Shown one piece after another: positions 34,933 to 61,090 of a stretch of 64,000 nucleotides of DNA. Source of the stretch: Spizellomyces punctatus DAOM BR117 (Eukaryota); the NCBI GenBank assembly GCA_000182565.2, contig KQ257452.1, one strand, 5' to 3'. Below the pieces are notes generated by a model that saw only the letters and a program-made list of their open reading frames with translations, did no database searches and had not been told where the DNA came from. Made by a program: the position numbers and the translations under genes. Within the stretch, counting starts at the first letter, position 1. Every line of letters begins with the position of its first letter.

Positions 34933-36135
34933 CTAAACAGCGAGGGCAAACAGGGCGGCCACGCCCACCAGTAATCCAGCTGCCACTTTGTTAACCATCA
35001 CCTGTTCGCCAGCACTTTTGGCACTCGCAGCTATGGGTGAACCGGAGGTAGGGGAAGGCGAGGCTGGGCTGCTTGCGGTCGAGGTCGAAACCGAGGTAGG
35101 AGTCGCCGAGGGTGCTGTCGATGTAGATGAAGTGGGAGTAGTTCCATTACCGCGATAAAAGGGCTGGTTCAGGCAAGTCCCAACGGGCATCATTTTGAGT
35201 GGAAAGTTGGCACCGGCAGCTTTCACCTCGTTAAGAACGTTTATCGCGATGCCGCTTGTGAATGGACTAATGTCGTGTTCAAGACTAATAAAACTCTTTT
35301 GAGCGGTGAACCACGTCTTGACGGTGTCTACAATCTTTTGCGAAGTGGCGGGAGATGCATCTGTTTGATCAGCATCAGTCGAGTCTCGGACCGGAGTGGT
35401 CGTCCAGAGAGTGGTAGAGTAGCCCAATGCCGTGGCAATGGCACGGATCCGGTCATCAACGTCACCACAGGGCGGACGCCAAAAGATCGGAAGACTACCG
35501 GTAGCGTTGTAGATCATGGCCTCAGTGTACTTTATTTCCGCAACAAATTGAGCGTTGGTGAGGGAAGTGGCGGGATAATGCGTCCAGGTGTGGACTCCAA
35601 TCTGATGACCTTCAGCAAACGATTTTTTAATCTCTTCTGGATTCTGTAATCCATTGGCGCCAACGATAAAGAAAGTAGCTTTGAGCTTCATGGCATCTAG
35701 TGCTGCCCTGAGCGAGGGAGTATCATTCTGGTTTTGTCCATTTACCACGTTGACGGTTGGACCATCATCGTATGTCAGGCCCCACACGTTATCCCCGGGG
35801 CAGCTAACGACATCAGCCTTAAAACCCGCCGTGTCATTTGTTCTCACGCAAAGATTGTTTGGCCAGTAGCAGTTTGTAGCGGCTGTGTCGGCAGGGTATG
35901 TTGCAACGCATGGAGACTTGTATTGTGACGGAGGAATGTTCAAGTACTGAGGGGGAACAGTTGCCTGCACGTAGGCGAGGGCGGTTGTAACGAGAGGATC
36001 CTTTAGGAAATTTTCGGGAATGGGACTTGCTTCATCTGTTGGCGGCCAGGCTGCCGGCATGGGAGGTGGTAAGGGGAGATCGGCGGCAATCGCCGTTGCT
36101 GCAAGCAGGATGAGAGAAGCAACTTGAGGAAGCAT
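34933..36135 (-). CDS. Chitin/polysaccharide deacetylase (CE4), secreted, probably GPI-anchored; intronless
   Basis: Signal peptide MLPQVASLILLAATAIA; NodB motifs LTYDDGP, HTWTH, FWRPPCG, DSTD and ISLEH; Ser/Thr-rich linker; hydrophobic C-terminus. Confidence 0.92.
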   Translation of the reverse strand: MLPQVASLILLAATAIAADLPLPPPMPAAWPPTDEASPIPENFLKDPLVTTALAYVQATVPPQYLNIPPSQYKSPCVATYPADTAATNCYWPNNLCVRTNDTAGFKADVVSCPGDNVWGLTYDDGPTVNVVNGQNQNDTPSLRAALDAMKLKATFFIVGANGLQNPEEIKKSFAEGHQIGVHTWTHYPATSLTNAQFVAEIKYTEAMIYNATGSLPIFWRPPCGDVDDRIRAIATALGYSTTLWTTTPVRDSTDADQTDASPATSQKIVDTVKTWFTAQKSFISLEHDISPFTSGIAINVLNEVKAAGANFPLKMMPVGTCLNQPFYRGNGTTPTSSTSTAPSATPTSVSTSTASSPASPSPTSGSPIAASAKSAGEQVMVNKVAAGLLVGVAALFALAV

Positions 36136-38645: not shown

Positions 38646-41600
38646 ATGACTGTTTCAAGTAAAGTATCGTCACCCTTAGAGACGTCAGTGGCCCATCTTC
38701 AACGTCAAGCCAAACATCGCCCAGATGAGCCTCTCTTTGTATTCCATGATGACAATTGTAATGTCATTGAGAAGCTCACCAGCAAGGAGGTCTACCGATG
38801 CGCACTCTCCATTGCTGCTGACCTGCGAAATGTTCTCGCACCCGGTGATCGCGCCGTCCTTTTATATCCACCTGGCACATCCTTCATCACTGCGTTTTTC
38901 GGATGCTTAATTGCCGGTATCGTTGCGATTCCAATGCCTCCAATTAACTTTACCGATACCCGTGACGAACAGCAATGGGATCATTTAGCAAAAGTAAGCA
39001 AAGCTTAGGAGTATTTTCTTCATGCATTGGAGCTCACGCTTTCTTCTTTTGATCCGTACAGGTGATTGAGACATCTGGAAGCAAAGTTATACTAACGGAT
39101 ACCATGTACTACAGGCTATCGACAGCCTACCAGATGAAAATTATGGTCAGCACACTTTCATTTCGGTCGAAATGGCCAAAGATCCCGTGGTAGGTGGTTT
39201 GGGATAATTATATGACTATGCCATCCGCGCGTTCTATACAAATCACGTGACAACTGATCCTTCCGTTGTCCAAAGGCGAACCACCGACACTGTCGCCGTC
39301 CAAGACAATATCAGTGAAGCAATCATTGTGCCTTCGACTCTGGACGACACTGCCTTTCTCCAGTTTACCTCTGGATCCACTTCCGCACCTAAAGGTACGC
39401 GGCGGCTATATATATATATATATGACTAGCCTAACTAATTTTGATCATGTTCCTTACAGGTGTCATTATGACCTACAGAAATGTCGGACATCAACTGGAC
39501 GTCTCTCGGGACACTTTGCTAACCCTTCCAGGCGGGAGCTATGTCTCATGGATCCCCCATTGGCATGACTTTGGTCTAATCGGAGCCATCCTGTGCACCG
39601 TGCACAACGACTCTACATATTACTTTACGTCACCATTGACGTTTATGCGAAAACCAAGTTCTTGGATTGAACTCATGTCGAGATACCGGGCGACACACAC
39701 CGCGGCCCCGACCTTTGCGTTTGATCTGGTGGTCAGGAAAACGCAGCCCGAAGAACGACTGGCGTGGGATCTGTCTGCGTTGAAGGTTATCAATATTTCG
39801 GCAGAACCAATTTCTTTTGACGTACTGCGAGGCTTTGCAGATGCTTTTGAAGCATCCGGGTTGAGACCTGGCTGTTTGGCTCCATGCTACGGATTGGCCG
39901 AGCACACAACGGGTATTACAGTATATGGTTCGTCTGTGTTGTGTGTGGACAAGCAGACACTAGAAGAAAGCAGTCAAGTAGAGGTGCGGCACTATAGCAA
40001 GGATGGATTGCACAAATGCCGGACCATACCTCTCGCTGGAGATAAGCAGGTGAAAGTCTTTGTTTCATCTGGTAAGCCGTACCGCGGTGTGACTGTTGCC
40101 ATTGTTGACCCGGTAGGTTGCTGATTGGCTTTGTGAGAGTATGGGAAAGTCGCTGTACTGTTTTCATGCACCGGACTGATGGTCAACTTTTGGTTTGCTA
40201 AAGATCTCGCGCTATCGCTGCCCACCACTGACCGTTGGGGAAATCTGGGTGGATAGTTGGTCAAAGGCGCCCGGTTATGACGGTCTGGCGGACGTCTCAA
40301 CAGAAACCATGGAGGCACGAATTGCTGATGACCCAGCAGATGCCACGCCATACCTTCGCACGGGTGACCTCGGTTTCTTTTATGACGGAGAATTGTACAT
40401 ATGCGGTAGAATTAAAGATATGATAGTTATTAATGGTGGGTTACCTGACTCGCACATACATATGGTCCGCGCCATTTTGTCTCTCAAGTATGTATTTCAC
40501 TTACAAACTGATCATTGCCGTGGTAAATATAGGTCACAACATTTATCCACAGGATATCGAGGACAAGTTGCGGAACAACGTCCATTCTGCTATCCGGCCC
40601 GGAGGTAGTAAGGAAAATCTATTCTTGTTTTTATGAACAGGACTGAAAACTGAGCCCATTTTGCATAGGCCTCGCTTCTTTTGCTGTGGAAGGTTCCAAG
40701 TTTGGAGAAGAAGGTCTCGTTGTATTTGTCGAAATCAAAAAGGAAGCAAATGACGGCGGCAAGAAAGGATCGGGTGCCGCGTCTTCTGATGCTTTGGGTC
40801 GAGACGTTGCCAAAGCAGTCCAGCGCGCTGTTGCGCGCGAGTTTGGCGTGCGTTGCTATGCGGTGGTCGTTGGCCTTCCCGGTCTTGTGCTCAAGACCAC
40901 AAGTGGAAAGGTTCGACGCCAAGCTTGTAAAAAAGAATTTGGCACTGGCGCAATTCACAAACTGAAAGCCACAATTTTGGTTGAGCGGTTTGGAAAATCT
41001 GACGAAAACAGCGAGAGACCACTTGTCTCTGAAGTCAGCGACTCATTAAACATTCCTGACCTTGTTCAAAGCCTCGACGCCCCGTTTCAATCCATTATAG
41101 GAGAATTGTCGACAATGTTTGGAGGCATGACGAAGCAATCGCATGACCGAGTCTTCCACCGTCGTGCAACAACATTATTGGGAACATGTCAAGTATTGGC
41201 CGATACCGATATTCCGGCCAACGACTTTCTTAAACCTGGGGCAGAGTATTCAGTATTGGTCCGTCATGCAAATGGGGTAGCTGATGATGACGCTGCAACC
41301 GATAATCGCGGAGCAACTGTTCGGCTCTTTGACGCAAAGCACAATGATATGAATCTGCCCAGCTTGGACTTACTGCTGACAACTGGAGAGTGCTTTGTTA
41401 ACGGAACTGCGGAGGATTTCCGTAACTGGATGCTAGCCTCCCTACCTGAAAAGGAACGCATTGCATCCGATAACCCGCTTGTCAGTGATGCGGCCTGGGC
41501 TGCATTCAGAGAAGGAATTGGATCGTATACTGATTATCATTACTACTCGAAGACATCAAGCATACTGACTGATGTCGATGGGGAAAAGCATATTGTTCAG

Positions 41601-44600
41601 TTCCGACTGGTAGGGGATGAGAAGAATGTCAATGGTAAGGTTATTTGTTCGAGTCTCGTACTCAGAACCATAGTACTCAGTTCGTGTTAACTCGTTTGCC
41701 ACTTAGCTGATCCCGGGAGGCTTAACCCAACAAGCATCCTTCCGCCAAATCGTCCGGCTATCCGTCAGCCAAACGACACCCGTCCCGCTGACTATCTTCA
41801 CGCCGAACTGCGAACTCGTCTCACATGGGGACCTATAACGTACTCTCTTCAAATTCGTGTCCATCCCTACTCGCGTGCCGCACCTTTAAACGCTCGGGCA
41901 TTGGATGCAACAATTCCATGGCCCAAACATCTTCAATGGCAGACAGTTGGCCGATTTACCTTGGACAGAATAGTCGATGACGAGCAGGCAGTGACGAAGC
42001 TCGCATTTAATGTATTTCATGCCCCTGCAGTCATTCGTCCCCCATTGACACGCTCGTCTCGGGATCCTGCGTCCTTAGCCTTGACCAGAGCGATCGTATA
42101 TGATGTGGCGGCTCGAACAAGAAGAGGAGAAAAGATTCCAGAATCTATTGCTAAGCTGGCTGCTTCTCGTCCGGTTCATCAATCCCCGTCCAGGGCCGAG
42201 AAAAGTCAAGGAAAATTGGAAGCGGTAGAGAAATTAACCACATTTGAGGTATCTGTGAGCAAGTCTCCCTACAGCTCATCAATCTCTGCACCTTTGCCAT
42301 CGTTCCAGCGAACTACACCGCTTCGGGTCGCTGTTATCGGTGCTGGACCCTCCGGACTCGCCGCAGCGTACGCTTTGCACAAATTGGGCTACGCTGTAAC
42401 AGTATACGAAGCATCCGATCGCATTGGCGGCAAGGCTGGTACCGTGAACGTGAAGGGGCTAGATTTTGATCTTGGAGGACACGTATGCACTCAGAGGTAC
42501 ACCAAGACTTGGTCCTTGGTGCAAGAGCTTGGCCTCCCAACAGAAGAAGTTACCCCAGGCAAGATCCTGAATCCAAGCAACCAGACCTGGCGCACGATTT
42601 ACGAAGTAACTGAGAAGGAACGTACCCCAGCGTGGCTTCTGGAGGCTGCATCGTACATGAAGATTCAACGGCAATACTTCCCGGAACCTTTTCCGACTAG
42701 ATTGTCGGCAAATGCAAAGTTGACAAACCTCACCGCGCCTGCAGCCAATTTCCTGAATAGCAACGGTCTTCCAAATTATCGCAAGGACATTGAGATCTTT
42801 TACTCCGGATGCGGCTACGGCATGCTCGATGAGCCTGACCATCCAGCCGCACATCTGATCAAATACTCTGAACTTCTCGGACTGTATGATACTGTCGACA
42901 CTCCCAGGCAATGGACGGTGAAGGGAGGTATGGGGAAACTATTCGAAGCTATAGCTAGCAAGTTGCCAGATATACGGCTAGCTTCCAGAGTAAATTGGGT
43001 GCAGAGAAAGGACGGTCAGATCTCGGTGCAAGCTGAAGGTCAGGAGCCCGCTACTTTTGATCGGGTCATGGTCGGTGTCTCTCCAAAAGTCTTTGAGTCG
43101 ATCTGTGCAGACGTTACAGTGCAGGAACGTGAGCTATTCGAAAATGTGCGATATCGCAATTACTGGACAATTATCTTTACTGCCGATGGTTTACCAAAGA
43201 AGGGATTCTTCCTGTTGGAAAATAACCAAGTGCAACAAAAGGGTTTGTGTTTCCTTTTGGCATTTTTTATTAGCATACATTTCCAGTACACTAATACCTT
43301 ACTATCAGAGGGTCATGTCGTCGCATTGCACCACCGTTACGATGACTCGAACATTTATTGTGCATACTCATACGGCGCAGAGTCTCATTCCGCAAAGGAT
43401 ATAGTTGCGTTCCTTCATGAGGATGTTGCCGAAATGGGCGGAAAAATGATTGAGGTTCACGGAACGTATCAATGGGGTGACTACATGCCTCATTATGGGC
43501 CAAAAGAACTTCCTACGATGCAAAAGAAGTTGGAAGCATATCAGGGAACCAAAGGAACCTTTTTCCTCGGCGGGTTGTTGTCCTTTGAGTTAATCGAATG
43601 CAACGTTTCTTACGCGACTGGCTTGGTGGAACGCTTTTTTACTGGGTCCTTTGCAACAGCCCCCAAGGACGTACAGATAACAAGCACGTCCAGTGGTACA
43701 CCCTTGCAGAGCTTCCACTTAGAAAACAATGAAGAACGGAAGCGCCGATCAATGGTGGATTACATTCGATTGGTCCTGAAAGAAGAGTTGGGAGATGAAG
43801 CCGTTGCTGAGATCGGGGATGAGGATGAGTTCTCGACTTTGGGTCTAAACAGTATCGCTGCTACTCGTATGACCGATCGTATCTGCAAAGACACGCAGGT
43901 CACGATTGCCCCTGTGACGCTATTTGCCTTCCCGACCATCGTGGCGCTTGCGGACCATCTTGTTGAGCTACATGCTGATCAGAGCATCGCGAACGAGGTG
44001 CCCGTCCCACTATCTCACCCGGTGCCGCACAGTTTCCGTCAGATGCCAAGTTTAATGGTTGCTACGGCACAAATACCCGAGATTTCTGTGCCTGTAGACG
44101 TGAAAGACAGACCCTTGGACATATTGAAGAAGGTGTCGAGCGACCAGGAGCGTCGTCAGGCGCTCTGTACGTATTTGCAGACCATATTACGCGAAGAGCT
44201 CGGGAGCGATGCGCTGAATGGATTCGATCAAGAAACCGAATTTGCGTCGATCGGGATGAACAGTATTCAATTCTCGTCTTTATCGAGCAAATTATCGACC
44301 GACGTTGGTGTAAACCTCGCACCGGTCACCTTCTTTGCTTTCCCAACAGTAACAGCCCTGGTGGACCATCTGGCAGAAATCGTAGATGTTGGGACTCTTG
44401 ATAAGCCTGTTGCTTGCCACAATGTATCCTCTAGCCCAGTGACACCGCCGCCTAGATACACCTCAAACACATCACCCTCTCCAACAGTAGATTCAAGGAG
44501 CACAGGAGGCTCGTACATTCGTCACCGCAACCTGACACTAGAAACGTCTTGCCATACAGCCTGCTTGGTTGACGTCTTTGTCCCTGCTACGTGGACCAGA

Positions 44601-47600
44601 ACTGGCTTGCTCGTCGATGTCATCAGTCGCGGATGGAACTCAAACGTTGCAGAAGTTGATCGCAAGTTAGCCCTGTACGATCATCTTTGTCACAAGGGAT
44701 ACGTGGTTGTTGCGGTCCGTGTTGGTTCCGGCCCAGATGTCAACTTGGCTACGATGGTGGCGGGCATCAGGGCTGCAATTCAATGGACTACTACCACTTC
44801 TGCTCGGGTGGAGTTGATGGGTATCCGTAGTGACAACATTGAAACCGTGCTTATGGGCGAGCACACAGGAGGTTTTGTTGCCGCTTCTTCCATTGGCCGC
44901 TTAAGCGCCACAGAAATGGTCGATCGTGTACTTCTCGTCCAGGTATGGCAAGTTTCTGCAATTTTAAAGCTCCTGTAGTCCGCCTAACTTTTTTTGATGC
45001 CTCCAATTAGCCTACGGTTGACTTCCAAGTCCCTCCACAAAGTAGATCGGGCGTTGCATTCCCATATGAAACTTTATCGGCTGCCAGCCTTTTGGCTCTG
45101 GAAGTGCCCGAATTGGCCAATAAACCGGAAATCGCTCTCGTGGGTCATTCTGGAAGCTGGTCGCTGCCTATGAGAGACTTGTCTGAATATTCACGGAAAT
45201 TTGCTCGTCGTAATGTCATTGCCTTCTTTGGCGCTGTCGACAGCCAGATGTGTAGCTCGGAGAGTGCATTGGAATGGTTGACCGGTGTGTAACTGTACTG
45301 GAATAGACAATAAAGTTTTTTTGTACCTTGTGTACTTCGAATTAGCTTTATATTCATCTTTCCTATTCTCACTAGAAAAAGACCGAACGGTCACTACAAA
45401 AAGGCTGGCGAAGAAACAATCCACCCCAACTGCACACTCAACGGCCACTGTCCAAAGATTACCTGCAAGCGATAAATCACTCCTCACAGTAGACCACGCG
45501 GTCGCTACCAAAACACAACTTGTCCCTCCAAGAACACCTCCTCCGAAGAATTCACTAAAACGGAGAGTTCCAGAATCAATTCAGGCATGCGATGGATGGT
45601 TCCTTATAACACCCAGTCAAGTATTGCCACCTAGTGTTCGCCTTCTAGTCCTTCACGATGCTGGGGGTAGTGCCGATCTCTATTCAAACTGGCCATCCCA
45701 GGTACCGCAGAGCTTGGAACTCGTTCGAATCGAGCTCCCAGGACATGGGCAACACCGTGGCGAACACTTCACCGACGGAAATGCACTTATCGGGGCATTG
45801 CTCAATGTCTTGGAACCAATGCTGGCCGATGGCATGCCATATGCCATTTTTGGACATTCTATGGGCGCAGCGCTCACCTTTGAGCTCACCAAAGCGATTT
45901 ATGAGCGGAAATGGGCTAGCCCCTTGATGATCTTCCTTTCTAGTTACCCGGCATTCAACGGTACCGATTATAAAATGGCGATAGAGCACAAAGCCGATAG
46001 ATCGGTTCTGTTTTCTTTGGCGGCTACTAGAACAGATGTATGTCTCCCTATCCCTGTATGTGCAATGGGAGGTGAGGAGGAAGCGATGAAGGGACTTTTG
46101 CCCTGTCTCTCAGCGTGGCGAAAACGAACGACTGCGGCCGGCTACCGAGGATTTTCTGTGAAACTATTCCCTGGAAACCACTTTTACGTCGCCGGTGCGG
46201 CTAGAGACGCTGTGGCTGAATATGTTTTCAAGCGGGTTTTCGATGCATTGGAAATGCGTGACCGATCAGCGGTTCCTCCCGAACGATATTTCCGAATGAA
46301 TGACCAGCCTGCGGAGATGCAGAATGACATAAACCCGTCCGTGCAAGCTTTGGCTCAGTCCTGGCGACGAAACCCGGCATCTATTACGTCCACTCAGGCT
46401 TTCTATTCGTTAGCGTGCATTGCCCGGCTTCTTGACGATGAAACCGGCAGACCCATCTTTGCAAACGGTTTGGAAGTTGTTTTGGGGATGCTAAACGAGG
46501 ATGGATACGGCTTCATCCAACCACAGCCGCTTGCGGTGGCTAACTGTGCAGCAGCCCTGGCTGTTGCAAACACATTGATGCTTCTCAACAGAGATGAGGA
46601 GCATAACGCAGGCTTCGATCATATGGACCGTCTGGTAAACTATGTGTTTGACGAATTGGCCAAAGTGAGGAGCGCAAAGAGATTGAAAAAGAGCGATTTA
46701 CCTTGTAAGTTCTCAGTAGATGATGCTGACGGTGCGTTTGACACCATGCTAATGAAAACTTGACACAGACGGAAAATACTTCGAGTTTTCCGACTTCTTG
46801 GCGATAAACCATACCTTTTATCACGAAGGTGCCTTATTTCTCAAACTGGCTTCCGATTCTTTGTGCCCCCAGGACAAGCGTCGTGAACTGGAAGTTTCCC
46901 TCAAGTCGGTAGCGTACGTTAGGATGGCATACGGGAAAGGAGTTGACTTGAAATCCTTATTTGACACGAATCACACTTTATTGTGGTTTGCGCATTGTGA
47001 GTTGTCATTGCAGGTGCTACGTTATGTTGTCAGCGCTACAAGAGCTGACTCTTTTTTTGTTGGGTAGACTTCAAAGACGGTACCTTGTCTAGTTCCGCTG
47101 CTCGGTCTCATGCGGCTGCCCGTAAAGTTGTCGGCTGGAACGTTGCTTCCACAGTGAAATTCTATGAAGAGACCAAAGACTCAAATGCTCTGCAAACGCT
47201 TCGCACGATGATGAAAAGGCCACGTATGTACTCTTCTGGGGTTAATGTAATAGTCGTTTTTGCGTCTGTTCTAACTCCCACAATTAGATGACGGCCTGCA
47301 TCCGGATATGTACCTTATGGAAACCCTGTTCATTTTCTATTATCTCCGCCGCGGCGGTGTCGACCTCCTCGCAGCAGGGTTTGAAGATGAACTGCGCTAC
47401 CTTGCGTCCTGTCTGGAACCAGACGGCGTTGGTATCTTTGAAGATCTGGGTCTCAAAGACGTGGATGTGTCCGCATTGGCCATATACCTGTTGCAGAATA
47501 CTCACATTCCTTCCCGTATGCGGGTTACCGGTTTGGAAGCATTTTGGAACGAGCGATATGGATTTTACGAAAATTTCGAAAGATCGGACTTTTTCGTGAC

Positions 47601-48213
47601 GGCGAATCATATGCACATCCTCGAAGCGTACTGCACGGCGCCGGATGATCATGTTTCGTTCGAAGGCAAACTGAAAATTTGGCAACGCATCACGGGCCTT
47701 CTTAAAACAAGGTCATGGGGAGAACATAACCACCTGTCATCCCTATACATTTGGGAAAGGGTTGTCTCGTGCATTTACACATATCAGCACCTGTTCCCCG
47801 ATGACCCTGTAGACGTACACAAAGTTGCCTTGGAACTCATCCTTCAGTTGCAAGACGAGCAATCAGGGGGAGTTGGCTCGGCGGCCTTAAACGGACGGCC
47901 AAATATGGAGGAAACCGGAATGGCTCTTTTGGCCATTCGAAGTGCCCTAAGAAGCAAAGGAGGTTTAGAGGAAAGCCTGCGGATCAAATGTGAACGAGCG
48001 CTCAGGAAAGGGAAGAAATATCTCCAAAAAGAGTGGGACAAATGCAGCAAGGAGGAAATTCCCATGTTTGAGGCGCTGTGGCCTGGTATGTGCCATGAAA
48101 TGAGAGTGAAGCCGTTGTGCCGATGTTAACAATTCCAATCTATTGTAGGATACCTGGCATTCTGTCCGACAAATATCGTTAAATCGATCATTGTTTCAAG
48201 TCTGCTGGAGTGA
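38646..48213 (+). CDS. Giant multidomain enzyme (~2,845 aa, 15 exons): FAAL, catalase-related heme domain, FAD oxidoreductase, ACP, ACP, degenerate alpha/beta hydrolase, thioesterase, class II terpene-cyclase-like gamma-beta didomain
   Basis: Manual splicing with GT-AG introns 38994-39061, 39190-39275, 39395-39459, 40113-40203, 40436-40532, 40605-40668, 41635-41706, 43243-43308, 44943-45010, 45285-45375, 46705-46768, 46997-47067, 47224-47287 and 48086-48148 gives one 8,538-nt open frame. Motifs: FLQFTSGSTSAPKG, PCYGLAE, YLRTGDLGF, KTTSGKVRR; RVFH, RHAN, RAIVY; VIGAGPSGLAAA; LGLNS, IGMNS; GHSMG, GNHFY; KDVDVS, NMEETGMALLA. Confidence 0.85.
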
Positions 48214-51200
48214 TAGACTAGATTATTCACGGGATAGTTTTGGACGGGTTAGAATAGGTGGGATTCTGCATCGAGGTGGAGGAACTGTTTGCACATATAA
48301 TAGGCATTGAAAAATTCAATATGGTTGCTCTGCTTCATAGTTTAACCTTCGAACTACTATTTGTTGATAGTAATGATGCTGACGGTCGTGATTGCTTCAT
48401 TCATCACTCAAAGTCGACGAGCTGCCTTTGTCATTGCGCGAAACACCAACAGAGCTCTAGGCAAGCAACGATTTGAAAACAATATTCTTTTCAAAAGATG
48501 GAGTAGCTTATGTAAATTCCCATGTTGCTCTCTTCCCAGGCACCTGAAATTGCACAATATCTTTGACTTGGCTGGTTCTCGCGATGGCCGAATTAACTCG
48601 ATTCACCAGACCTTCCAAAAAGGTCCGTTTTGAATATTGATCTTGCTGAAATTTGCACCGTCCGTACGATCTGTCGTCCAATGTTTCCCGTAAATCTAAT
48701 TGAGTGGCATCTGTAAATACCCAACGCATTTACAGTTATGCATGGAACCGTGTATACTGACCTCCTTGGCAGAGAGAATCGGAATGTACCTTTGATAAGT
48801 TCTCTGACCCTCAAGGCAATGCTCGGGTTCGACTAGATACTTATCACCATTAAGATAATTCCTGCGGGATATCAGGGATGGTACTCTCTGAATGGTTTTG
48901 CACATACAATGTATTCAAGCTTTTCAGTCAACATCTCGTTCAAAAATGGAAACGAGAGGGATATCCAAACGGGGTATCATAATTTGAGAACCGCCCTCTC
49001 ATGCGCAAACATATTGGCCTTACGATAAGACAAATAATACATTTCAACTCCTTTTCCAGCACAGAACGTCGCAAACTTCAAGACTATCCGTCAAATATGG
49101 CACGCTTTACAGTGATGTGCATCCCAGAGAAGAGCCAAAGCTACCTATCCTACAAACAAAGCAAACCCTTCAAAGCCAGCATGCCCTACTTTAAGAAAAT
49201 GGGACCTTCAAAGACGCACGTCGAGTTTAAAGAAACCTCTTTGACAATATCTCAAAGAAAATTTCCTCACCTCTCCCATACCGGGCATTTTCAATGAGCG
49301 TAAACTTAGGAAACAGTTTCAGGAGCGGTTGCGTCATTGCTGTGCTGCGAAGTATTGTACAATTAGATCGAGCGTTGCTCTGAAGCATCACAGATGCCTC
49401 GCACGGACGCAACCGTGGTTGACAGTCAAACCATATCGGACTTGGGAGGCATCGCCTTAAAGTATTCTCGTCATTAACTATGTATGGGATATGTGGTGCC
49501 ATCAGTTTGATGACAACGGCGCATGGGATTTTGTGGAAGGTGGGCTTGTGGGCTTTTGAGCAGGTCAATCAGATACAATTCTTGTGCCAAGAAGGCATGG
49601 CAAACCCGCCATGCATAGTTGGGGCTGAGGGCTGTGAAAACCAAATCCTCAAGTGTTTCTGGGTTTGGCACGAGCTCGGAACAAGCATAAAAGATGCGCT
49701 AAGCAAGACTATCCCCCGTTCACCAATGCAGAGGAACATTACCGTTTGGGGAGGACCGTGGGAAAATCAAGATAAACAAATGACTCGCTTCACGCGTTTA
49801 CATAATCTGAACTTACGCGACGTGTGCAAGGGGAACGAACGCACGCCAGGAGGTCTGCCAGGAGGTGGAAAACGACGACGATGATTGGGTGTTCATGGCG
49901 TGCTCAGAAGAATGACGTACGCAGGATACGGAATCTTCCGCCGAGAATTCCCGAAATGCAAAAAAAAGCGCAGTTCCCCAGGGTTATAAAAAGGCGACCC
50001 TCTCTCGCATCCCCCCGCATTTCTCTTCATCTTTCCTTCCGCCTCGGGATGGCATAAAACTCGCTCCAGCCATGGGTACTGGCGTAAAACTCAACTCGGT
50101 CCAAAAGTATACCGGATAACTTTAAAGGCCGTTGTAGTAATGCAACGTGATAACCTCTTTGAGGTGGGCGCCTGGGACTGATCGTGTGCGCGCGCCAGAA
50201 ATGGTAGGAGCAACGACTCGCCGGAGCCTTCGGGCGATGATGGCATCCTCTTCGGGGGAAGGGCCTGTGATAAAGGGTGAAATAGGATGAAATATGATAT
50301 CTTGACAAAGTAGAGAAACCGGCGCGGTATTTCCCGTGCATACTTTGGATCCACAGCCGCCTTGATAACCGCCTTGCTGCTCACAAATGGTCTCCGCTTC
50401 TCAGACCTACGAAAATCCACGAGATGCAGACAACTTCTGAGCTAGACTCTTACTCTTACTCGGCACTTCCTGGCTCCTGGCTCCCGCGCTACAGGATTCC
50501 AAGATAACCCCCACGAACACCGCTCTGGTTTCGGTGCGCCGACTGCAGCAGAACTCTAACCGCCCACAGGACAACTTGCAAACTGCAAACACTTCTTCAT
50601 CTCCGCCGCTGCCTTCCCAGCTGTTGCCCCGGCTCCTACCTCACATGTTCCGTTACCTTCATCCTCATCGGTATCGGTTGAAACGACGATTTTCGCCCGT
50701 CCCATCAAGACCATCATTGAGCGAATAATCCATCAACGCCAGCCGTCGCTGCAAGCCTGCATGCTGTGTAACTATCCTAACCTTGCCGTGGTTAATACAA
50801 GACCGCAGGCTGTCCCCAGTGCGGAATAAGTTCGGCACTGGTGAGAAATCCCCACGCTCAACTATCAGCATTATACGGATGGTAAGTGTACGCCAGACCA
50901 GACCCTTTCTCAATCGTCAACCCTGACCTGCCCTTTGATATCTCAATTTGCATCATCACCATGTCCAAGTGCGTGCGGAGCCAACTTGTTATCGCCCGGT
51001 CACAGGAGATGGGGAAAACGAAGCCAAAATACGAGCAAATCCGCACTGCCAAAGTGGAAGCGCTAATAGGGGGAGGTAGGATTAGTTGCAGCACATATCG
51101 AGGAGAAGCCACGGCTTCCAAGCGGCGGTCAACACATGTTCACAGCTGATCCATTCTGGATCTGTGTTGATTAGCCCAAAGCGACACCCGGTTTACGTGC

Positions 51201-51251
51201 AACAGAAGGGCCCTTGGCCTTCCACCGCCAAAGGACAACCAGACATATCAA

Positions 51252-51427
51252 TGACATTTGGAACAGTTTTACAGCAATTCTCTGTGCAAGAGAAGCCTAT
51301 TTTCTTGCTCGACTCCATCGACAATGGTGCTGGGCCGGTATTTTGCCACAGCCATTGGCCATGGAGTCGAGCAAAGAAATAGGCTTCTCCTTCGTAGAGC
51401 ATTGCCGTAAAGCTGGTCCAGAAATCA
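51252..51427. repeat. Long imperfect inverted repeat (hairpin/MITE-like)
   Basis: Core GAGAAGCCTATTTTCTTGCTCGACTCCAT (51290-51318) matches the reverse complement of 51361-51389 at 27/29; weaker pairing extends outward to about 51252/51427 and inward. Confidence 0.85.
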
Positions 51428-54222
51428 CACTTTTCTGGCGTCTGATGAGATGATATTGCAGTTCCGACTGAGATATATGGGCGGAGCTACTGGCTGGAGA
51501 GCTAGCAAACGAGAATCCGGTTATTTCGCTACGAGACGTGACGTATGAGCGAAGAGCGGGGAACAAGCATCCGTCGTGGCATGATGCGATGTGCACGTCG
51601 ACCCAGCCTCTGACAATGGGGCAGCGGGAGCGGGAGGTGCTGCCGAGGTTTCTTACCTAATGTTTCGGCATCTGATCAATCTATTTTATTCGGTGATGCA
51701 AATGATCTCCGCAATCCATCTCCCTACCCTCCATGATAGAATGATCAGATTGCACAGCTCCAAGAAAGATCGGCAGCACCACCAGTTCCCGCGGCCGCAT
51801 TGTCTAAAGCTTGGTTGAATGTCACCTCGCAAGGCCCTTCTGCTGGGGAAGGCATCGCGATGGACACTGTGGATCAAACGTCTTAAACGGAAACAATTGA
51901 TGCAGATTATCATCTGGTTGAAGATCAGCATACCATGGAACTGAAGGTAAGTAAGTCGCTTCAACCGACGTGGTTCGAAGGGATTTATTTATTTATGCAC
52001 GGCATTGTTTTCCTGCAATGATGAGCAAAATGTGAACGTGTCGAGCAAAAAGCCGTTCACATAGGCCACCCTGGAGGTGCACAAGCTGACGGGTCGAGGT
52101 CCTCTTGACCTATTTGCCAAGCTCGTAGGCTCATGTGAATCCATGGTCTGGGGGGAGAGAGTGTTTGGCATGTCCACCCGCACCCCGTCCGTTCCGGGTT
52201 AGAGCGATTGGTAAGGGCCATCTTCGTCCATTTTACCTAACTTTTACCTCAACCCGATTCTTTGGACTATTAGTTGAGCTGCAACTATCATCAGTTGAGA
52301 GCAGAACGAGTTTCTGCAACCCACTACTCCCTCGCAGCACCCACCACACAGAGCACACGCCCTACTTACACCGCTAGAGTCGCTTCCGCTCTCTCGACAA
52401 GTCCATCATGTCTGGTATCGATCCAACTCGCCTCGAAGCATTCGGATTTACTTGGAGGTGCGATTCATTGGTAACAGCCATATCGACGCCAACGACGCTG
52501 CCGTTTACTATGAACGTCTGCTATGAGCGAAATGACATGGTAAGAAGCATACCTTCCTTTTTAACTGCTTTCAGCTGATATATCCTTGTAAGTTTCACAT
52601 CGTGGCCATGGGTCTTTTGCTGCATCGACTCGTCTTACTGCCTCACAACTCCTGGTGCAACTTGAGGGGCCAATACACCCTACGAATGTCAGACTGGCCT
52701 CTGCCACGGCACAGGGCAAGTCCTCGTCTCCCGCAGCAGACACACATGGCAAAAAGTCATCCCGATGTTGGGATGCACGACCTTGGTCATGTAATTGGGC
52801 ATCCCGACATCGGTCAAGTAATTTGAAATCATCTGCGGTCATCACAGTGGAAGCCCCTTAAGACGAGCATTCGTACAATCCGTACTACTTCAAGTAGGAC
52901 GCCAAGCACATCGAGGTCGATTATGAGACGTTCTGCGCGTCTGTTCACTGCGCCGTCCATGCGGAGGAACTAAGAAGAGATTAAGCAACAAGAAAGGGAA
53001 CAAAAAATCAAGAAGGACTCACATGGACCGTCTGTACGGCCGTATGAAGCTTCTTCTGGCTCTTATCGCTCCTTAACTCCAATCGGTACTCGACAAACTT
53101 CTTCCGCACAGCCTGGTCACAGTTCGAGCACTGTATTTGACGAGGGAATCAAGGCCGAGTCCCACGATCTCTTTGACTCATTCTGTAGTATGCCAGTTTT
53201 TTCCGAGTGCCCAGCGTGGGTAAGGAGCTAGTTTGCGAGAAGCACTAGGAAGAGGTTGTGCCAGGCCGCCCCGTGCAGCATCACCGCCCGCTGCAGCACT
53301 TAGTACCATGATGCAGCTAGAACAGGTCCACTACAAACTTTCACCGTGTCTTTCCAACGTCCATCATGAGCATAGTAGTCGGTGCTGCCGGAGGCCGAAT
53401 AGGAGAGCAAATCACCCGCCCGGAGGAAGCTCACCTTTGGTAACTGGCCTGTACCACCCCAACAACCTTTTCGTACGAAAGGAGATCGGAACACATGGTC
53501 GATATGTCTGAAAATGAAGGGTGATGTACAGTCTGTGACCTCCCCACTTCTTTCGGTCGAAGTTCGCTTCCGTGGACGACGAAACGTGCTTATAGGCAGC
53601 AATACCAGCTCCCAAATCACAATGCCAACGACCAGGGATTATAACAATTGACTCGGCGTTAGCTTGTTATCCCCACTATGACCACGACACTTCACAGTTC
53701 ATGACGCTTGCCGCCGACATTTCAAGAGCAAGTCCTGGGCTCGGAAATTACCCGGGCGTTCAGCCCGTAGAGAACTTTCGTCAATAAATTACGGTGACCC
53801 CCTTCTTGATTAAGAAGGTAGGCGGCCATGTGGCAGGTACGAAACAGGCAGACAACCTCCAGACGCCCACGGTCCTTCCCTTGGGCACTGACGATTTGCA
53901 CATCTCGCAGAGGTAACAATGTTCTTGAGATCTGATGCTACGTACGTCAGGAAACTCGAGTAATGAGTACCTCGATCCGAAGACCTCGAAAACACCCTTT
54001 GATGTTCCCAGACGAGCGCGGTAATCCATTGCGGGATGAGACCTGGGTACGCTGCGTGCCAGGGAACGGAATCAGTATGGTATCCTCCTCTGTTTAGGCA
54101 ACAAAAGGCAGCAGCAACAACCACCGGACAATAATTTGACACATGGGGCCTGTCCTGCCACTATTTCCTCCGCTGCCCCAGCAGCAAGCGACATAGCAGG
54201 CATCCGCAATATGCTTTATGAT

Positions 54223-54270
54223 CACGATTTCCCAAGGAGTCTTCAACACGATTTCCGAAGGAGTCTTCAA
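54223..54270. repeat. 24-bp tandem duplication
   Basis: CACGATTTCCCAAGGAGTCTTCAA followed by CACGATTTCCGAAGGAGTCTTCAA (1 mismatch). Confidence 0.9.
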
Positions 54271-56800
54271 TATGAAGCAGAACCACCAATTTACACATAA
54301 GCGCGGCCTTCGGAAGAAGTTTCTGATCCACGCGGCAGATTCGAAACCGAATGAGAACGTTATGGTTGATGTACGGCAATCCTGGAGGTGGACGTTGTCT
54401 TGCATCATGCCAAAACCCGACATGCGCATAAATGGCCTACTCGCCCAAAGATCCATAGGACCCCAGTCGGATCATCTTCCGCACCCGTGCCTCTGGCCGA
54501 TCGGTGCGGTGATACATCCCGCACAAGGTCGGACCTGGCTATTGGTCGGGTCCGAAACCCCCTTATCCGACAAGGGATTGACATACCAATAAGCTACAGC
54601 TGAAGGGTGTGGCATTCTATCGCTGAACCGATCGGCCGTTGCGTGTTAGGTTCCGAAGCCCACCTCCGGACTCCAGCATCGTCCTCTACTGCGTTGGCAG
54701 CGAGCCCGAAAGCTTGAACGATATTCATCTAGAACCCTCTAGCCCCCATTGAAATATGAACTTCTGCCCTCACCTGCTCCTCCGCCTCACTGCAGCCTGC
54801 CAAATGACAAAACTACTCTTCGTTGCGGATGTACGTTTCCATCGCAACATAAGGACAATGGATCATCAAATTGCATTAGAAACGCATATGTCGAATTTGT
54901 TAGAGGTCAGATTGACTATACATCGGCAAAGCATTGAAGAACTGGACAAGGAGGGTGCAGGGAGCGCGAAAATTGAGGATTGCGATGTGCAACCAAGTTA
55001 GCATCCTCACAGACATCCCGATTCTCATTCCCCATACTCACGGCCCAGTTCTTCATTTCTTGCCCATCTGCTCTCTTTGACACTCGAGGAATATTAATCT
55101 GGTACGGAGATACGCTTTTAACGCGACTTGAAAAGCGCTTTCTCATATATCCTATGGATTTTCAAAGCGGACAAGGCGTACACACTCTTCCAAGTCCGAT
55201 CTAGCCTACCCCGACATGCAGGATTGCACGTCGATGGAAGAAGCAGCGCTATGTCGATGCAGAACTCACGGAACTCACGATGGTGTCGGCTGTGCAGAGC
55301 TTTCGTCGTGAGCCACACAGCCAAATGTTGAACTGAGCGCAACGGTTGACGCCCTGCATGTCACCGTCTCGCTTCATTTATATAAACAGCCTGTGCGCCA
55401 GGCATTCGGATTGACCAATGCATACAACTGATTTAGGAAGATCTCTCGAGTTGAGCTGTTAGTATTTGAAATGACTACACTGGTTCGTCGCTGCTGTCAC
55501 TCATTGCTGCATATGTGGTGGTATACTTGCAGCCATGCCATGGTCACTGAGGTTGCTATCAAGCTACCACGGATGCTGCCGGTCAGGTAACCTATTTTGA
55601 GTTCCCTGTCGACCGTCTGCTCACCGTCGCACGAGCAGAACACCAACAGGTTACCGCAACAACGGTGACCAGTCTGGCCGGTGTTATACGATTAGTCGTC
55701 GCCGTCGTCCTCCGCTTCTCCCTTCCCTAGCAGCCTCTTTTTCTTCCGATATACCTTCTTCCACGTCCTCACCGCAACGATATCATTTCTACACGAGCGT
55801 GATGACGGTGGTCCCAAGAGGAAGAGTTCTTCCGAAGAAGCACCCGTGAGAATCGAGAGTGGATACAAATGAAGGCGGTGGTTCGCGGAAAGTACCATGG
55901 AAGGTTCATTAGTACCTCATAAAAGAACCCATGTTTGCAAAAGTGCCCAATCCCAACAGCTGAAGCAGGCCCAAATCTGTTGCTTGTGGCATATAACGAC
56001 CGGACACGCGGGGAGCCATCACCTTCTTCAATCAGTATCCCCTCCACATTAACTACGACAAGCACGACGATATAGCGAACAACCTGGAGTCGTGTACTCG
56101 TAGAACCACCTCCTCTTGGGCAACCTTGGGATTACATCACTTTGCCCACATCGTAGCAATCATACGATTCTCATGTCGAACGCGACCCATATCGGAGACT
56201 TACGTTAAATGGTCTGACGAGGCTTTCGTCTTTCACTATCCATCTCTGACTCCTGGTGTAGGACTGTTGTTGCCGGCGAAAGACTGGGAGAGCATCAGTT
56301 CCTCAACGCCCTTGTACGCAAACAAAACGAAGTGGCACAGAGTTGTCCATAACCCGCTGTTGCAACTGTTGCCAACGAAACACCTCCCCCCACCTTCCGC
56401 GGACATGACATTAAATAAATCACTGTTCGTAGGCCATCTTCGTATCTCTTCTTGCACCCGGTGGTTTTTCGCGGAACTCATAGCGACAGTTGTACGGGCG
56501 GCTGCTCCTCGCGTGCTGATCCGCCAGCTGCTGCATCTGCCAACGACCCACCCGCAAACGACACTCCGCCCACCAACCGTCCCGCTACAAATCTTGCTCC
56601 CAGTTGCTGGGCTTTCTGCACAGGTGTCATCACCTTTCTCAAGCCCATCTCTTTAAACTTCAAAATCAATCATTGCGGTTTGGACCAGGTAGCCTATGAT
56701 GAGCTGAGGGAGTACTACGGGGATTATCGGATACAAACGGAATTGCTACGATCTGCATACCTAGTATCCCGCGAGCATGCTTTCCAGAATTTCCGCCTTG

Positions 56801-59800
56801 CATGTGCAGTTCTGTAGTGCTCGGTACTACTGCAATGGCAACGCACTGTAGGACATTCGCTCTGGGAAAATCCACAGGTTCTACCGCTGATGAACTTGGA
56901 TACCCATTCCCTAACATTATGTGACGATATGCGGCAACTACTCCGCTTATAGCCCAAATACGAGGACGAGGAAGGTTTTGGGCCCCGTGTACGCTGACAC
57001 TCGGTGGTCGGGCCGGTAGCTGCGGGGAGGACTGGAGGGAATCCAAACTCTTTCCAGGCATTTACTCTTCCTGGTTAATACGTCAATTTCGGAGAGAATA
57101 ATTGCAATGGTTGCAATGCCTTCAGTTCCATGCATAGGCAAAATGGACATGTCTTCCGTAACGTTACGTGACGAGACCCACGCGCTGGCGTTCTACATCA
57201 TGAACGTCGTTTTGGCGGAGAAGTTGGGTGATGCGGAGAGCGGGAACGGCGGCGATCTTGTGCGGGCATCTGGAGAATTCGAGCGTCGGGATTGTTTCTG
57301 AGTCAATTTGGACAGCGGGACGAGCAGGAGTGCGGCCTGGAGAATAACATGCATGGACATAGTTGGGGGAATGACTATGATTGGGCTCTGTTATGGCGCG
57401 ACCGACATGAATTCACCGCCTCCTCGAGAGAAGAGGAATTCATAACGTGATCTACAAACAGTAAATCGACGGTGTAACAAGAAAGGTCCAAACCTGACCG
57501 AGCTCATCCAGCGGTGATCAAGTACCGTCCTACAAACTGGTCCTGGTTCTCCGTACGCTCCTCCAAGGACTTCCTTATCGGCTGCTCCAAAAACTGGTAA
57601 TGCCAGTGGTTGAAAAAAGGTTGGATATCTACTTAGGTTGCGTAGAGAAACATGTCGCGTCGATGTCGCGGTTAAAAGCGCTTCTCGGAAGGAACAGCGC
57701 TGATCATGCCGGTCACGGTGTACGTCGGAGCATAACATGTTCAGTGGCAAGTAGGCGGGGAAAGAAGGGGGGCTGTGGACCTTGCTTCGCGGCAGATCCG
57801 CTCGAAGCGACAAACCGCGAATTATACGAACTGGATGGCGTAGTATTTCGCGGCGTGGTCGGGTGACGTTCAAGGTTTCGCCGAGGTCTATTCAGCAATT
57901 TGTGGGGACAGAGTTCCTGAATTGGGGCAGCGGGACGAGCAGGTGTGCGGCCTGGAGACGAACATGCATGGACAGTGTCAGCGGGATAAGATGAGAGGCC
58001 TGAATCATTTCTGCTACGGTGGAATGGGTATCCGGGTTCATCTTCGCAGAGCGTGTTGGGATCCCAGCTTCCTGAGGGGAGTGTCATCCATCGCACTGCC
58101 ATTGCACTAGTTCCGAGCACTACAGAATTGCACATGATTGGATATGCTACGGGGGCAGGACGCACAAAATGGACATGTATTTCCCAACGTAACATGATGA
58201 TATGCGGCAACTACCCCTTTTATCGCCCAAGGCGAGGGCAAGGGAAGAAGCTTCGGTGGCCGTCATCAGAAGCAAGGCACTTTGGATTCTCTTCAGCATT
58301 ACTCCTCTGCGCAGCTACCGGCCAGATGACCGAGAGTCCAATTGGGCAAACTCATTCCCGGTCATTAATTATGGCTGCATCATTTCGTATCCATGGTGTG
58401 GTACCGAAAAAAAATTGGGCCAAACCGCAGGCGTTGATCGAAGCCACTGCATCAATTTCGGAGAGAAGCATTGCAATGGCCGAAATTGATGCAGTGGTTT
58501 TGATTAGCCCTTAAGGCCCGGCACAATCTTGTTTTGGCACCACATCATGGATACAAAATGGTGCAGCAGCCATAAGCGCTGCTTACTAGTTAATGCCTGG
58601 GAAGATACCAGCCTTGCACATTGCACTTGACCAACCTTATCGTAACTTTGGACGAGGGCAGAGCATGCAGACCGCCTTTTGTGGCCAATCCCACAACGGC
58701 GCTGGCCAACCGAGCAAAATATTGGACGAACCACTCTCAAAACTGTTGTGCGGCAGCCGGCCATGGATTGTATCGTCGCGCACTCCATTCGCAAAATTAG
58801 GGGGGTCCTTCCTTCCTTAGATGATACCGACACATTGCCCTGCCTAGTTGTCCCCGCATGGCCCCCCGTCCCCGTCCCTGCGCTACCCAACATATTATCG
58901 TTGCCTCCCTCATCGGCTTTTCTCTGGATGGCCAAGGTCTACTGGGATTTTACTCATTTGCAACCTCCAAGACGATCCGGAGGATATGTCACCCCTTGAG
59001 CGGGGGCTGCACATCTGCCAGATTTTAACGCAGCACAGGGCATGACCTCCATACGATGAAAAGACTAGCCAAGAGAGGAATTTGAACCAAACACACTTCC
59101 AAGACGACGTTTAAAAAAATGGTACGCGTGGCCCCCATCCGCTCTTTTCATATCCAGATGTTACTATTTGCTACAAGCAGTAAATCGACAGCGTAGCAAA
59201 GGGGTTCCAAGCCTGACAGAGCTCATCCGGCAATTATTAAGGAACTCTTTACAAACTGGTCGAGGTCCATTATACTCTCTCCAAGAACCCCTCATTGTCG
59301 GTTGCTCCAAAACTTGACACTGGCAGTGGTTGAAAAAACGGGTTGGATAACGACTCCATTTGCTGAGAGATGCAACATCCAAACAGCCTTCTCGGGAGGA
59401 GTTTGGCCTGTCCCCAACGTGAATCGCGGCCTCTGTGGCTAGAGTGAGTCGTACCGATGCCTGCCGATGTTTTCGCTCATCATATCCTCCGTTGCAACCG
59501 GTGCTTGTTGAGGTGCCGTGGTTATCCGTTCCTTGGGGCTCGATGCGCAACATTTCAATAACCCCAATGTGGGCTTTAGACGACATCAAAGCTAATCCAT
59601 TTTGCGAGAGACTAGATGGATGGAGGCGGCATTTTGTTCGAGAAGAATCTGCGATTTGATCACAAGACGACGTTCACCCTTTTGCATTCTATGTCGTGAA
59701 TGTCAATGTCGCTCTGGAAGATGAGTTGGGAAGCGCGGGGAGGAGGACGGCGGCGACGATGTTGGGGAACCTCTATGGACGGACTTTTTGACACATCTGT

Positions 59801-61090
59801 GGGAAAGGGACAAAGCAAGCTTATGGACTGGAGAATAACATGTACGATTCAAAGCAAAAACGGGGAAAGGTACGGTGATGTGGCCCTTTCTTCGTCCAGA
59901 ATTCTCCGAGAAGCAATCTGTTGATGTCGGCAAAGGTGCAACCTGCAAAATACGCATACTAGAGCGCTATGGCCTGCGTCCTCCCAGCAATTCTCAGAGT
60001 GGTATATCCAACGCTTTGTGTTTCCGGCCAGCGCCAGAGTTGATGGCAAGATCGACCGCCCCGCCGACGTTTCAAAAGATGATATAATCCGTCGTTCGAG
60101 TGGATTTCGATTACATCGAATATCGGACTCTGTCGCGACTGGTTGATCGGCCAATAACGGGGAGAATGAGGGGCGTGCGCGTCGACGATGTGCCCACAAC
60201 CTCCACCCACAATTCTTGTCCTTCTGTTCAAGGTCTGGCTCCCTTGGTGGCCATGCAGTACGTAAATGGCGACGGTTGGTTGGTTGGTCGCATTGATCAG
60301 GTGTGGACGATGCAGCTAGAGTTTTTGTGATGAATGTCATCTTCGAGGAAACTTTGCTGTGCTGCGGGCATCTACAAAGATCGCCCAAAGGTTGGCAAAG
60401 TCATCGGCTACTGCCAAGTACGCCAGGTCGCAAAAGTCGCTGGTCTCTGTTTACATGCCACCAAATCCTTATTCTGGGCCCAATCGCTATTTTCACCTAT
60501 ACCCAAAAATGAGAAACCGAGTGAACCGGATAAGGGTTTTTCATCTTTGGTGTGGGTTCAGACCTTCGGCTATGGCCTGAAATATTGGAGATGGTGGATG
60601 GACAACCACATGGTTCATAGCGGATGTCATACTTGCGTCGTATGAAGAACTTGTGTAGGCCGCGCCGGATCGGGTGCAAAAACAAAGCCCGCAACTACCC
60701 GCCGACTCTGCGCGTACAGTGTTGTTCTCCCCTCCGCATACTTGTTCTTCTCGCTCCGATAAGACATCCACAAAATCTGTCCCCCCAATGCTCGACGCCC
60801 AAGTTCCCCAGATATCGATGCATGAACAGCCCCCCCGAACAAATAGAGCTGAGAAGGCTTGTATAAACAAAAGTTGGCACCACCAACGCCGTATCCATGA
60901 AGGCAATGGGGAACGTAGCATCTCCTCAGTTTCCCCGGGCTGCTTTGGCCGCAAATGTTCTTCGCCAAGCTACAGGATTGATCGTCTCTCTCCCCCAAGT
61001 TATCAAAGATTCTGGATTGTGGGGACCGGACTGACGCACTTTGTGGAAAGACATGAACAAGCCTGTGGCGCGGAAAACAACATGCATGAC
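56801..61090. pseudogene. Mosaic of decayed, locally duplicated segments of an unidentified gene or element family
   Basis: Related ~50-bp cores at 57308-57360, 57922-57974, ~59800-59845 and ~61043-61090; a ~180-bp direct pair 57451-57630 vs 59170-59351 (both read RYPT..F...PVC...MSSVR.G..LL..RFT.C on the minus strand); an inverted pair 56801-56840 vs 58097-58136 (37/40). No long intact ORF. Confidence 0.6.

Follow-up and report, generated by a model that had tools for sequence, protein, structure and literature searches.

The window analysed here is a stretch of 64,000 nucleotides (nt) from the chytrid Spizellomyces punctatus DAOM BR117 (contig KQ257452.1, assembly GCA_000182565.2), fungal DNA with spliceosomal introns. 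It contains the gene SPPG_08952, in which 14 GT..AG introns leave a single reading frame across positions 38646-48213. The encoded protein comprises, in order, an FAAL (fatty acyl-AMP ligase), a domain like the coral catalase-related allene oxide synthase (cAOS), a flavoprotein domain like the fatty acid isomerase PAI, two acyl carrier proteins (ACPs), a hydrolase fold lacking the catalytic Ser, a thioesterase (TE) and a class II cyclase fold. The second of these domains, with which we are mainly concerned, is a cAOS homolog that keeps all the heme ligands and is predicted to bind heme. With one donor site shifted by 3 nt, the spliced product is identical to record P0019, and an orthologue, P0163, is known from a second Spizellomyces. 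The features of the gene are as follows:

38646..48213, plus strand: the whole gene, 15 exons, 2845 aa, from a splice assembly equal to record P0019 (SPPG_08952, Spizellomyces punctatus)
38646..40976, plus strand: FAAL, aa 1-620 (PF00501; the best NCBIfam match, 'fatty-acid--AMP ligase' at E 1e-97, falls short of the curated cut-off)
41061..42140, plus strand: cAOS-type mini-catalase, aa 649-984, 336 aa (matches of both halves to 1u5u, family profile, proxy model from P0003)
41635..41706, plus strand: 72-nt GT..AG intron with an in-frame TAA, splitting the mini-catalase domain and removed in P0019
42312..43646, plus strand: PAI-like flavin domain (profile against 2b9w; model TM 0.85)
43740..43979, plus strand: ACP 1, with Ser1533 in GLNS (PF00550)
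44145..44390, plus strand: ACP 2, with Ser1670 in GMNS (PF00550, two stretches)
44520..45283, plus strand: alpha/beta-hydrolase-like domain with His at the position of the nucleophile Ser (GEHTG), with a weak BD-FAE match (E 0.003) and a resemblance to the hydrolase domains of homologs
45594..46268, plus strand: thioesterase, GHSMG with Ser2149, and His2256 (PF00975, E 5e-20)
46296..48213, plus strand: class II terpene-cyclase-like beta/gamma domain with the DxD residues Asp2616 and Asp2618 (profile match to 6vpt, 'Cyclase', E 4e-19, and to diterpene synthases)

The in-frame stop within the mini-catalase domain is intronic, and a pseudogene reading was rejected. In the RNA reads analysed, about 6% of one run and strongly 3'-biased, splicing of two of the gene's introns was seen, in 2 and 14 reads respectively, together with a poly(A) end at 48319; SPPG_08952 is spliced, polyadenylated and expressed. 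Splicing of the 41635-41706 intron was not seen in this small, 3'-biased sample. A contig from an RNA library spans 41253-41511, which by itself is no proof of transcription. A second pile of 3'-type reads stands within the gene at 44836-45523 (depth 13-17, against less than 2 around it), which may reflect priming within the transcript or a premature poly(A) site; the latter would give a form of the protein without thioesterase and cyclase.

A preliminary description, made from the letters alone, had placed an AOS-like mini-catalase domain after the FAAL, and this identification was borne out. The best PDB match of both exon halves is coral cAOS, 1u5u (E 8.1e-8 for the first and 3.5e-8 for the second), and a six-row family profile matched 1u5u at E 4.2e-41, the catalase-related protein 3e4w at 7e-15 and a true catalase at 0.003. 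As a structural proxy for the window domain we used the AlphaFold model of a bacterial homolog, P0003, which is 44% identical over the first exon (predicted local distance difference test score 86.9); this proxy superposes on 1u5u with TM 0.84 and Z 33.1, compared with Z 25 for 3e4w and Z 23 or less for catalases. Identity as an ordinary catalase was rejected on these Z scores and on the lack of a PF00199 match; moreover, the domain has 336 aa, as against 480 aa or more in monofunctional catalases, and the Asn is absent.

The motifs RVFH, LDLLLTTGECF, LDATIPW and RAIVY are all present, in a single frame and where the preliminary description had read them, with RHANG starting at 41262 and LDATIPW at 41901. 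Alignment to coral cAOS upheld the proposed equivalence of the His and Tyr to the catalase-type ligands (His681 is His67, and Arg967 and Tyr971 are Arg349 and Tyr353), and it set Thr755 on Asn137, the Thr that had been suspected at the distal Asn position. The key residues lie as follows, with cAOS numbering in brackets:

41148..41159, plus strand: R-V-F-H, giving Arg678 (Arg64), Phe680 (in place of Thr66) and the distal His681 (His67; codon 41157-41159)
41262..41279, plus strand: Arg716 (heme Arg102) and Val721 (where cAOS has its carboxylate anchor, Lys107)
41379..41381, plus strand: Thr755 (in place of the distal Asn137)
42087..42122, plus strand: proximal Arg967, Tyr971 (codon 42099-42101) and Arg978 (Arg349, Tyr353 and Arg360, the last assigned by extending the alignment two residues)

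What these residues do in cAOS is described in the passages of PMC5617202 drawn on here: Arg64, His67, Arg102, Arg349, Tyr353 and Arg360 form the heme set, the hydroperoxide is contacted by Thr66 and His67, the carboxylate is probably held by Lys107, Asn137 has no important part in catalysis per se, and the T66V exchange confers catalase activity on the coral enzyme. The window domain thus has the truncated catalase core fold, the three heme arginines, the RxxxY motif and the distal His of the AOS and hydroperoxide lyase (HPL) hemoproteins; the Thr-His pair is replaced by Phe680-His, Asn137 by Thr755, and no fused or adjacent lipoxygenase was detected. Since it lacks these three features, it is not to be classed as an allene oxide synthase. 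The idea that the Asn to Thr change implies altered heme chemistry was weakened, and its standing as the key change was rejected, the position being a poor marker: Asn137 is dispensable in the same passages of PMC5617202, it is kept in only 10 of 68 homologous domains from ACP-containing proteins, and two lipoxygenase-fused relatives have Ser there. This change is probably minor. Given the roles that those passages assign to the three residues, it is outweighed by Thr66 to Phe and Lys107 to Val, two changes that the preliminary description had overlooked. By alignment, the first removes the Thr-His hallmark of hydroperoxide binding and the second the carboxylate anchor, and the clade as a whole typically shows both. 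Between the window domain and that of P0163 there are 23 differences (93% identity), none of them at a key site; the other domains are 91-95% identical and the linkers 73-89%.

To our knowledge, cAOS-type enzymes in general are supplied with substrate by a lipoxygenase, and for the characterised ones this is also the account in the relevant part of PMC5617202. The preliminary description had seen no lipoxygenase in the window, and we found none either: the 36 open frames of at least 125 aa in 18000-38500 and 48300-64000 gave no lipoxygenase Pfam match. The search was extended to the genome, where neither family nor protein queries detected a lipoxygenase, although an exon-wise search may miss a divergent gene. 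As controls, the protein query recovered catalase exons, and the lipoxygenase family search was positive in four of five myxobacterial genomes. The chytrid genome holds desaturases and two ordinary catalase genes. It also has four loci of the animal heme peroxidase family (C5, C8, C12 and C13 of genome G000; L012-L019), some with signal-peptide-like starts and membrane-like C-terminal parts, apparently three of the four as judged by eye. In one of the bacterial loci (L034, 2493-9190), genes for a hydrolase-ACP-TE protein, a short lipoxygenase and a GST-FAAL fusion follow one another, so that here a carrier line does have a lipoxygenase attached; the lipoxygenase sits between the ACP-TE gene and the closely related FAAL, which is cut by the contig end.

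The preliminary description was right that a flavin domain and ACPs share the chain with the heme domain; it overlooked how closely the former resembles PAI, the P. acnes fatty acid isomerase (2b9w). The flavin-domain profile matched 2b9w over its full length at E 1.3e-72, the next match being at 4.4e-22, and the model superposes with TM 0.85. Putrescine oxidase came top in a single-sequence search, but profile and fold put PAI far ahead, and assignment as an amine oxidase or HemY was rejected. With residue numbers counted from the profile alignment to 2b9w, Arg88 and Phe168 of PAI, which we take to be substrate residues, are Pro and Cys here, the Arg88 column being aligned at low confidence. 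Across 51 full-length PAI-type domains of the line, Arg88 is kept in one, the Phe168 position is small in all 51, His replaces Ile61 in 48, and Gly406 is Glu or Asp in all 51. With these conserved column changes, the flavin domain is something other than an ordinary PAI. Whereas PAI stands alone and acts on free acids, the window flavin domain is part of an ACP line, has lost Arg88 and Phe168, and has a new His and Glu near the flavin. A PAI-fold oxidase, CpaO, abstracts a hydride and forms H2O2 at a 1:1 ratio, according to the portion of PMC13003489 consulted. In another bacterial locus (L134, 6508-9210), a cyclopropane fatty acid synthase is fused to a PAI-type domain, and several frames of about 900 aa, the size of that fusion, occur among the 18 of 301 Myxococcota genomes with PAI-type matches.

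How widespread this combination is was examined with a family profile search of 1.84 billion representatives, which gave 755 matches; we studied the best 150, together with 12 proteins from another search and one translated locus. In 65 of the 162 studied proteins, the line proteins, the catalase domain occurs with a FAAL, PAI or cyclase domain, and PAI is present in 57 of the 65. Of the other eight, five end within 189 aa past the catalase domain and three are of the plant type. The C-terminal partners vary (thioesterase, PlsC acyltransferase, reductase, condensation, P450, hydrolase and cyclase), with a class II cyclase-like domain in 11 of the 65. Bacterial carriers include Archangium and other myxobacteria, Streptomyces, Lentzea, Pseudonocardia, Nocardiopsis and cyanobacteria; eukaryotic ones, among protists, algae and land plants, include Gefionella, Myrmecia, Flectonema, Selaginella, Eucalyptus and Marchantia. 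A single chain of Archangium gephyra reads FAAL-catalase-PAI-ACP-TE-cyclase; its identity to the fungal protein is 36% over one part and 30% over the other. The cAOS-PAI-ACP module is rare in the Myxococcota sampled: of 301 genomes, 3 have the catalase domain (the query's own source among them, and another with a stand-alone domain), against the 18 with a PAI-type domain. In an actinobacterial locus (L031, 118-12866, all on one strand), a gene of the polyunsaturated fatty acid (PUFA) synthase type, with four FabA domains and an AT, lies directly upstream of the FAAL and a catalase-PAI-ACP-TE-P450 protein, a compact candidate cluster for an oxylipin. The bacterial gene context points to polyunsaturated substrates. 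In a metagenome scan, 79 of 80 loci had no match to the catalase part, a plasmid search with P0061 had no match, and in the ESM Atlas only unnamed or 'catalase' clusters were retrieved, the top structural row being a plant cluster.

Residues were surveyed in 155 catalase domains, with lipoxygenase labels taken from Pfam scans of 74 chosen proteins. Of the 68 ACP-line domains, 43 have Phe at position 66; of the 24 lipoxygenase fusions, 19 have Thr or Ser there. Asn137 persists in 10 of the former and 17 of the latter. The heme set is strongly conserved in the 64 ACP-line domains scored (Arg102 in 64, Arg360 in 63, Tyr353 in 62, Arg349 in 62 and His67 in 58). Lys or Arg occupies position 107 in all 12 Thr-His or Ala-His members of the line and in none of the 52 others. 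Two trees were built, with FastTree from 150 rows and with the quick mode of IQ-TREE from 69 rows left after removing near-copies and most stand-alone rows. In both, the ACP-line domains group with two lipoxygenase fusions, and their nearest relatives are Thr-His lipoxygenase fusions. The basal ACP-line members are Thr-His or Ala-His and keep Lys or Arg107, while the branch formed by the window protein with actinobacterial and plant proteins is mostly Phe-His and never has Lys or Arg107. The pattern at position 107 is, on these trees, one event and not 52. The association of Thr loss with the change of partner likewise counts as a single evolutionary event, because an independent-pairs test found two pairs, neither of them differing. 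A single eukaryotic origin was rejected (nine named rows; approximately unbiased (AU) test, p 0.0005, on a quick LG+G4 tree), which points to several transfers or to old paralogy.

Compared with known systems, the window domain shares its fold and Arg64, His67, Arg102, Arg349, Tyr353 and Arg360 with the cAOS of the coral Plexaura homomalla (1u5u; AOS-lipoxygenase fusion 3dy5) and with coral HPL; where the coral enzyme has Thr66, Lys107, Asn137 and a lipoxygenase partner, it has Phe, Val, Thr and a FAAL/PAI/ACP partner. The nearest lipoxygenase-fused relatives, P0029 of Desmonostoc and P0053 of Acanthopleuribacter, fall inside or beside the ACP-line group and have also lost Asn137, to Ser, but they keep Thr-His, Lys107 and the lipoxygenase and have no ACP. 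Plant FAAL-like proteins (P0042 of Selaginella, the P0045 Eucalyptus cluster and P0067 of Marchantia) have a catalase domain of the same clade as the window protein and the same PAI-type flavin domain, in a different order (FAD-ACP-FAAL-ACP-hexapeptide-catalase). This architecture is already in print: a section of PMC8460268 describes plant FAAL-like proteins between 'HemY' or amino-oxidase and catalase domains and states their function to be unknown, and nowhere in that section are the domains likened to cAOS or PAI. What is new is a variant cAOS-type domain inside an uncharacterised, widespread lipid-tailoring line. We found no characterised member of the line, and nothing on its kinship with cAOS or PAI, in a literature survey that included few subscription papers and stopped at the main articles, the supplements of PMC8460268 and PMC12820801 being places where such proteins may be listed; in the main text of the FAAL papers examined, catalase, isomerase and lipoxygenase gave no matches.

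The results described above raise the possibility that the protein is a thiotemplated oxylipin line: its flavin domain would oxidise an ACP-bound polyunsaturated chain and thereby supply a peroxide for the heme to use on that chain. From fold, ligands, architecture, conservation and expression we infer this chemistry, on a heme whose binding is predicted, and hold it as our leading though tentative reading, with a little less than an even chance of being right. The FAAL would load a polyunsaturated fatty acid onto the ACP. The PAI-like flavin would take a bis-allylic hydride as PAI does, and reoxidation by O2 would leave a conjugated polyene and H2O2, or an acyl hydroperoxide. The heme domain could then use the peroxide on the tethered chain, by oxygen transfer or by a rearrangement of the allene-oxide or epoxy-alcohol type; the TE would free the product, and the class II cyclase fold may form a ring by protonating an epoxide or alkene. 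In such a line the place that the lipoxygenase has in known cAOS systems would be taken by the flavin/ACP unit. A substrate bound as a thioester would agree with the missing carboxylate anchor, and a heme accessible to H2O2 with the hydrophobic residue ahead of the His. Conservation of the heme set, the 93% identity to P0163, co-occurrence with PAI (57 of 65), the pattern at position 107, the column changes of the PAI-type domains, the L031 locus, the failure to find a lipoxygenase, the presence of desaturases, the precedent of CpaO and the Thr-His lipoxygenase fusions as nearest relatives speak for this reading, and with them we still place it just short of evens.

Several observations weigh against the thiotemplated line. 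Four of the five bacterial carriers tested hold lipoxygenases elsewhere in the genome, the four heme-peroxidase loci of the chytrid are possible hydroperoxide sources, and the lipoxygenase of L034 is a true one, beside a FAAL with 51% identity. The solved PAI member is titled an isomerase, not a peroxide-forming oxidase. Sets of FAAL, PAI and ACP without the catalase domain occur (L131, L133), in which the flavin step needs no heme; these and the PAI-cyclopropane synthase fusion indicate that the flavin does its own lipid chemistry and that the heme domain is an add-on. The link to PUFA synthase is a single case, as only one complete actinobacterial locus was recovered among 80, and a Pfa-like gene is present in only two of five myxobacterial carriers, non-adjacent in both. 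An intact-looking lipoxygenase fusion, P0133, is also Phe-His, and the distal His is absent from 6 of 64 ACP-line rows, 2 of which are gaps. Repeated swaps between lipoxygenase and PAI partners are unsupported, a single ACP-line clade being compatible with the data (AU p 0.215). Finally, both ACP motifs (43845-43853 and 44256-44264) read Asn-Ser, also in P0163, where motif-matched bacterial homologs have Asp-Ser.

A bolder form of the thiotemplated line, which we consider doubtful, makes the PAI-like flavin a metal-free stand-in for the lipoxygenase: it would dioxygenate the ACP-tethered chain, the mini-catalase would rearrange the hydroperoxide, and the terpene-cyclase fold would close a carbocycle. 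If true, this would be a lipoxygenase-independent thiotemplated oxylipin pathway common to myxobacteria, actinobacteria, protists, a chytrid and land plants, and it would explain the uncharacterised FAAL-catalase giants of plants. In either form, a heme acting on a carrier-bound chain would mean new oxylipin chemistry in one expressible gene, from a branch of the cAOS clade in which the residues holding a free hydroperoxy acid are lost. A conserved plant protein whose function is given in print as unknown would gain one that can be tested, and a gene of secondary metabolism would be added to a fungal group that, in the portion of PMC7466969 used here, is said to be poor in them.

Unlikely, in our view, is that the heme domain acts as a safety valve, a peroxidase or catalase that removes H2O2 or lipid peroxides arising from the flavin or from an autoxidised conjugated product, and leaves the product unshaped. 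The 33-kDa catalase-related protein 3e4w, which has organic-peroxide activity, offers a parallel, with a mini-catalase fold, a hydrophobic residue before the His and no distal Asn, as in the window domain. Versions of the line without the catalase domain exist, and with T66V coral cAOS gains catalase activity (PMC5617202). But 3e4w is stand-alone and more distant: cAOS is much closer than either 3e4w or the catalases (Z 33 vs 25 vs 23; E 4.2e-41 vs 7e-15), and the genome already has its two ordinary catalase genes.

Rather improbable is a classical cAOS or lyase, with a flavin that does no more than isomerise and a hydroperoxide of external origin, from a lipoxygenase or heme dioxygenase acting in trans or from autoxidation, perhaps loaded by the FAAL. 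Such a scheme would suit the basal ACP-line members with Thr-His and Lys107, the lipoxygenases of the bacterial carriers and of L034, and the four heme-peroxidase loci of the chytrid. The window domain, however, has neither Thr66 nor Lys107, no lipoxygenase was detected in the genome by the exon-wise search, and three of the four peroxidase genes apparently have a signal-peptide start or membrane segments, as seen by eye.

We give slightly less credit again to an O2-using heme oxidase, for which the flavin would isomerise or desaturate the chain to a conjugated polyene and the heme would activate O2 for a superoxide or radical cyclisation. Chanoclavine synthase (9jdc), a catalase-fold enzyme, works in this way, using O2 in a superoxide/radical cyclisation and being paired with a flavoenzyme, and in the ACP line the proximal ligands are better kept than the distal His and Asn. 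Against this, 9jdc is no better a match to the P0003 proxy model than ordinary catalases are (TM 0.65, 16% identity). That the domain is a relic or scaffold carried along in the fungus is most improbable: the neighbouring hydrolase lacks its Ser, the ACP motifs are atypical and some homologs have lost the distal His, but the heme ligands are all intact, identity to P0163 (93%) is as high as in the other domains with no key-site difference, and the gene is spliced and polyadenylated.

Turning to the remaining domains, the His at the nucleophile position of the hydrolase-like domain (GEHTG, 44856-44870) is kept in P0163; in P0192 and P0039 the corresponding residue of the hydrolase domain is Ser. 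The C-terminal domain has the beta/gamma domain and the DxD general acid of a class II terpene cyclase and is predicted to be one; the second Asp of the DxD is invariant in all nine aligned rows. A fungal gene cluster was rejected, the neighbours of SPPG_08952 being unrelated (polysaccharide deacetylase, PhoD-like, choline transporter and eIF3a). The upstream one, at 34933-36135 on the minus strand, is a secreted polysaccharide deacetylase with a Ser/Thr-rich tail.

Three further observations concern the homologs. An unnamed domain of about 260 aa lies between catalase and PAI in Thr-His or Ala-His members only (P0030, P0034, P0036, P0048, P0051, P0052, P0056, P0070 and P0102); its profile matched only its own members, and the idea that it is a lipoxygenase remnant was rejected. 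A cAOS-like clade starred in our trees (P0082, P0088, P0097, P0105, P0112, P0116, P0117, P0130, P0136, P0139, P0146, P0149, P0150, P0155 and P0157), with some lipoxygenase-fused members, is mostly Ser-His with Asn and has no Tyr at the aligned proximal position, which may reflect an alignment shift or a different ligand. In two myxobacterial loci (L003, 7495-8157; L004, near 1176-1900), a gene like a HAD-type hydrolase, recognised by eye, lies head to head with the FAAL-catalase-PAI-ACP gene.

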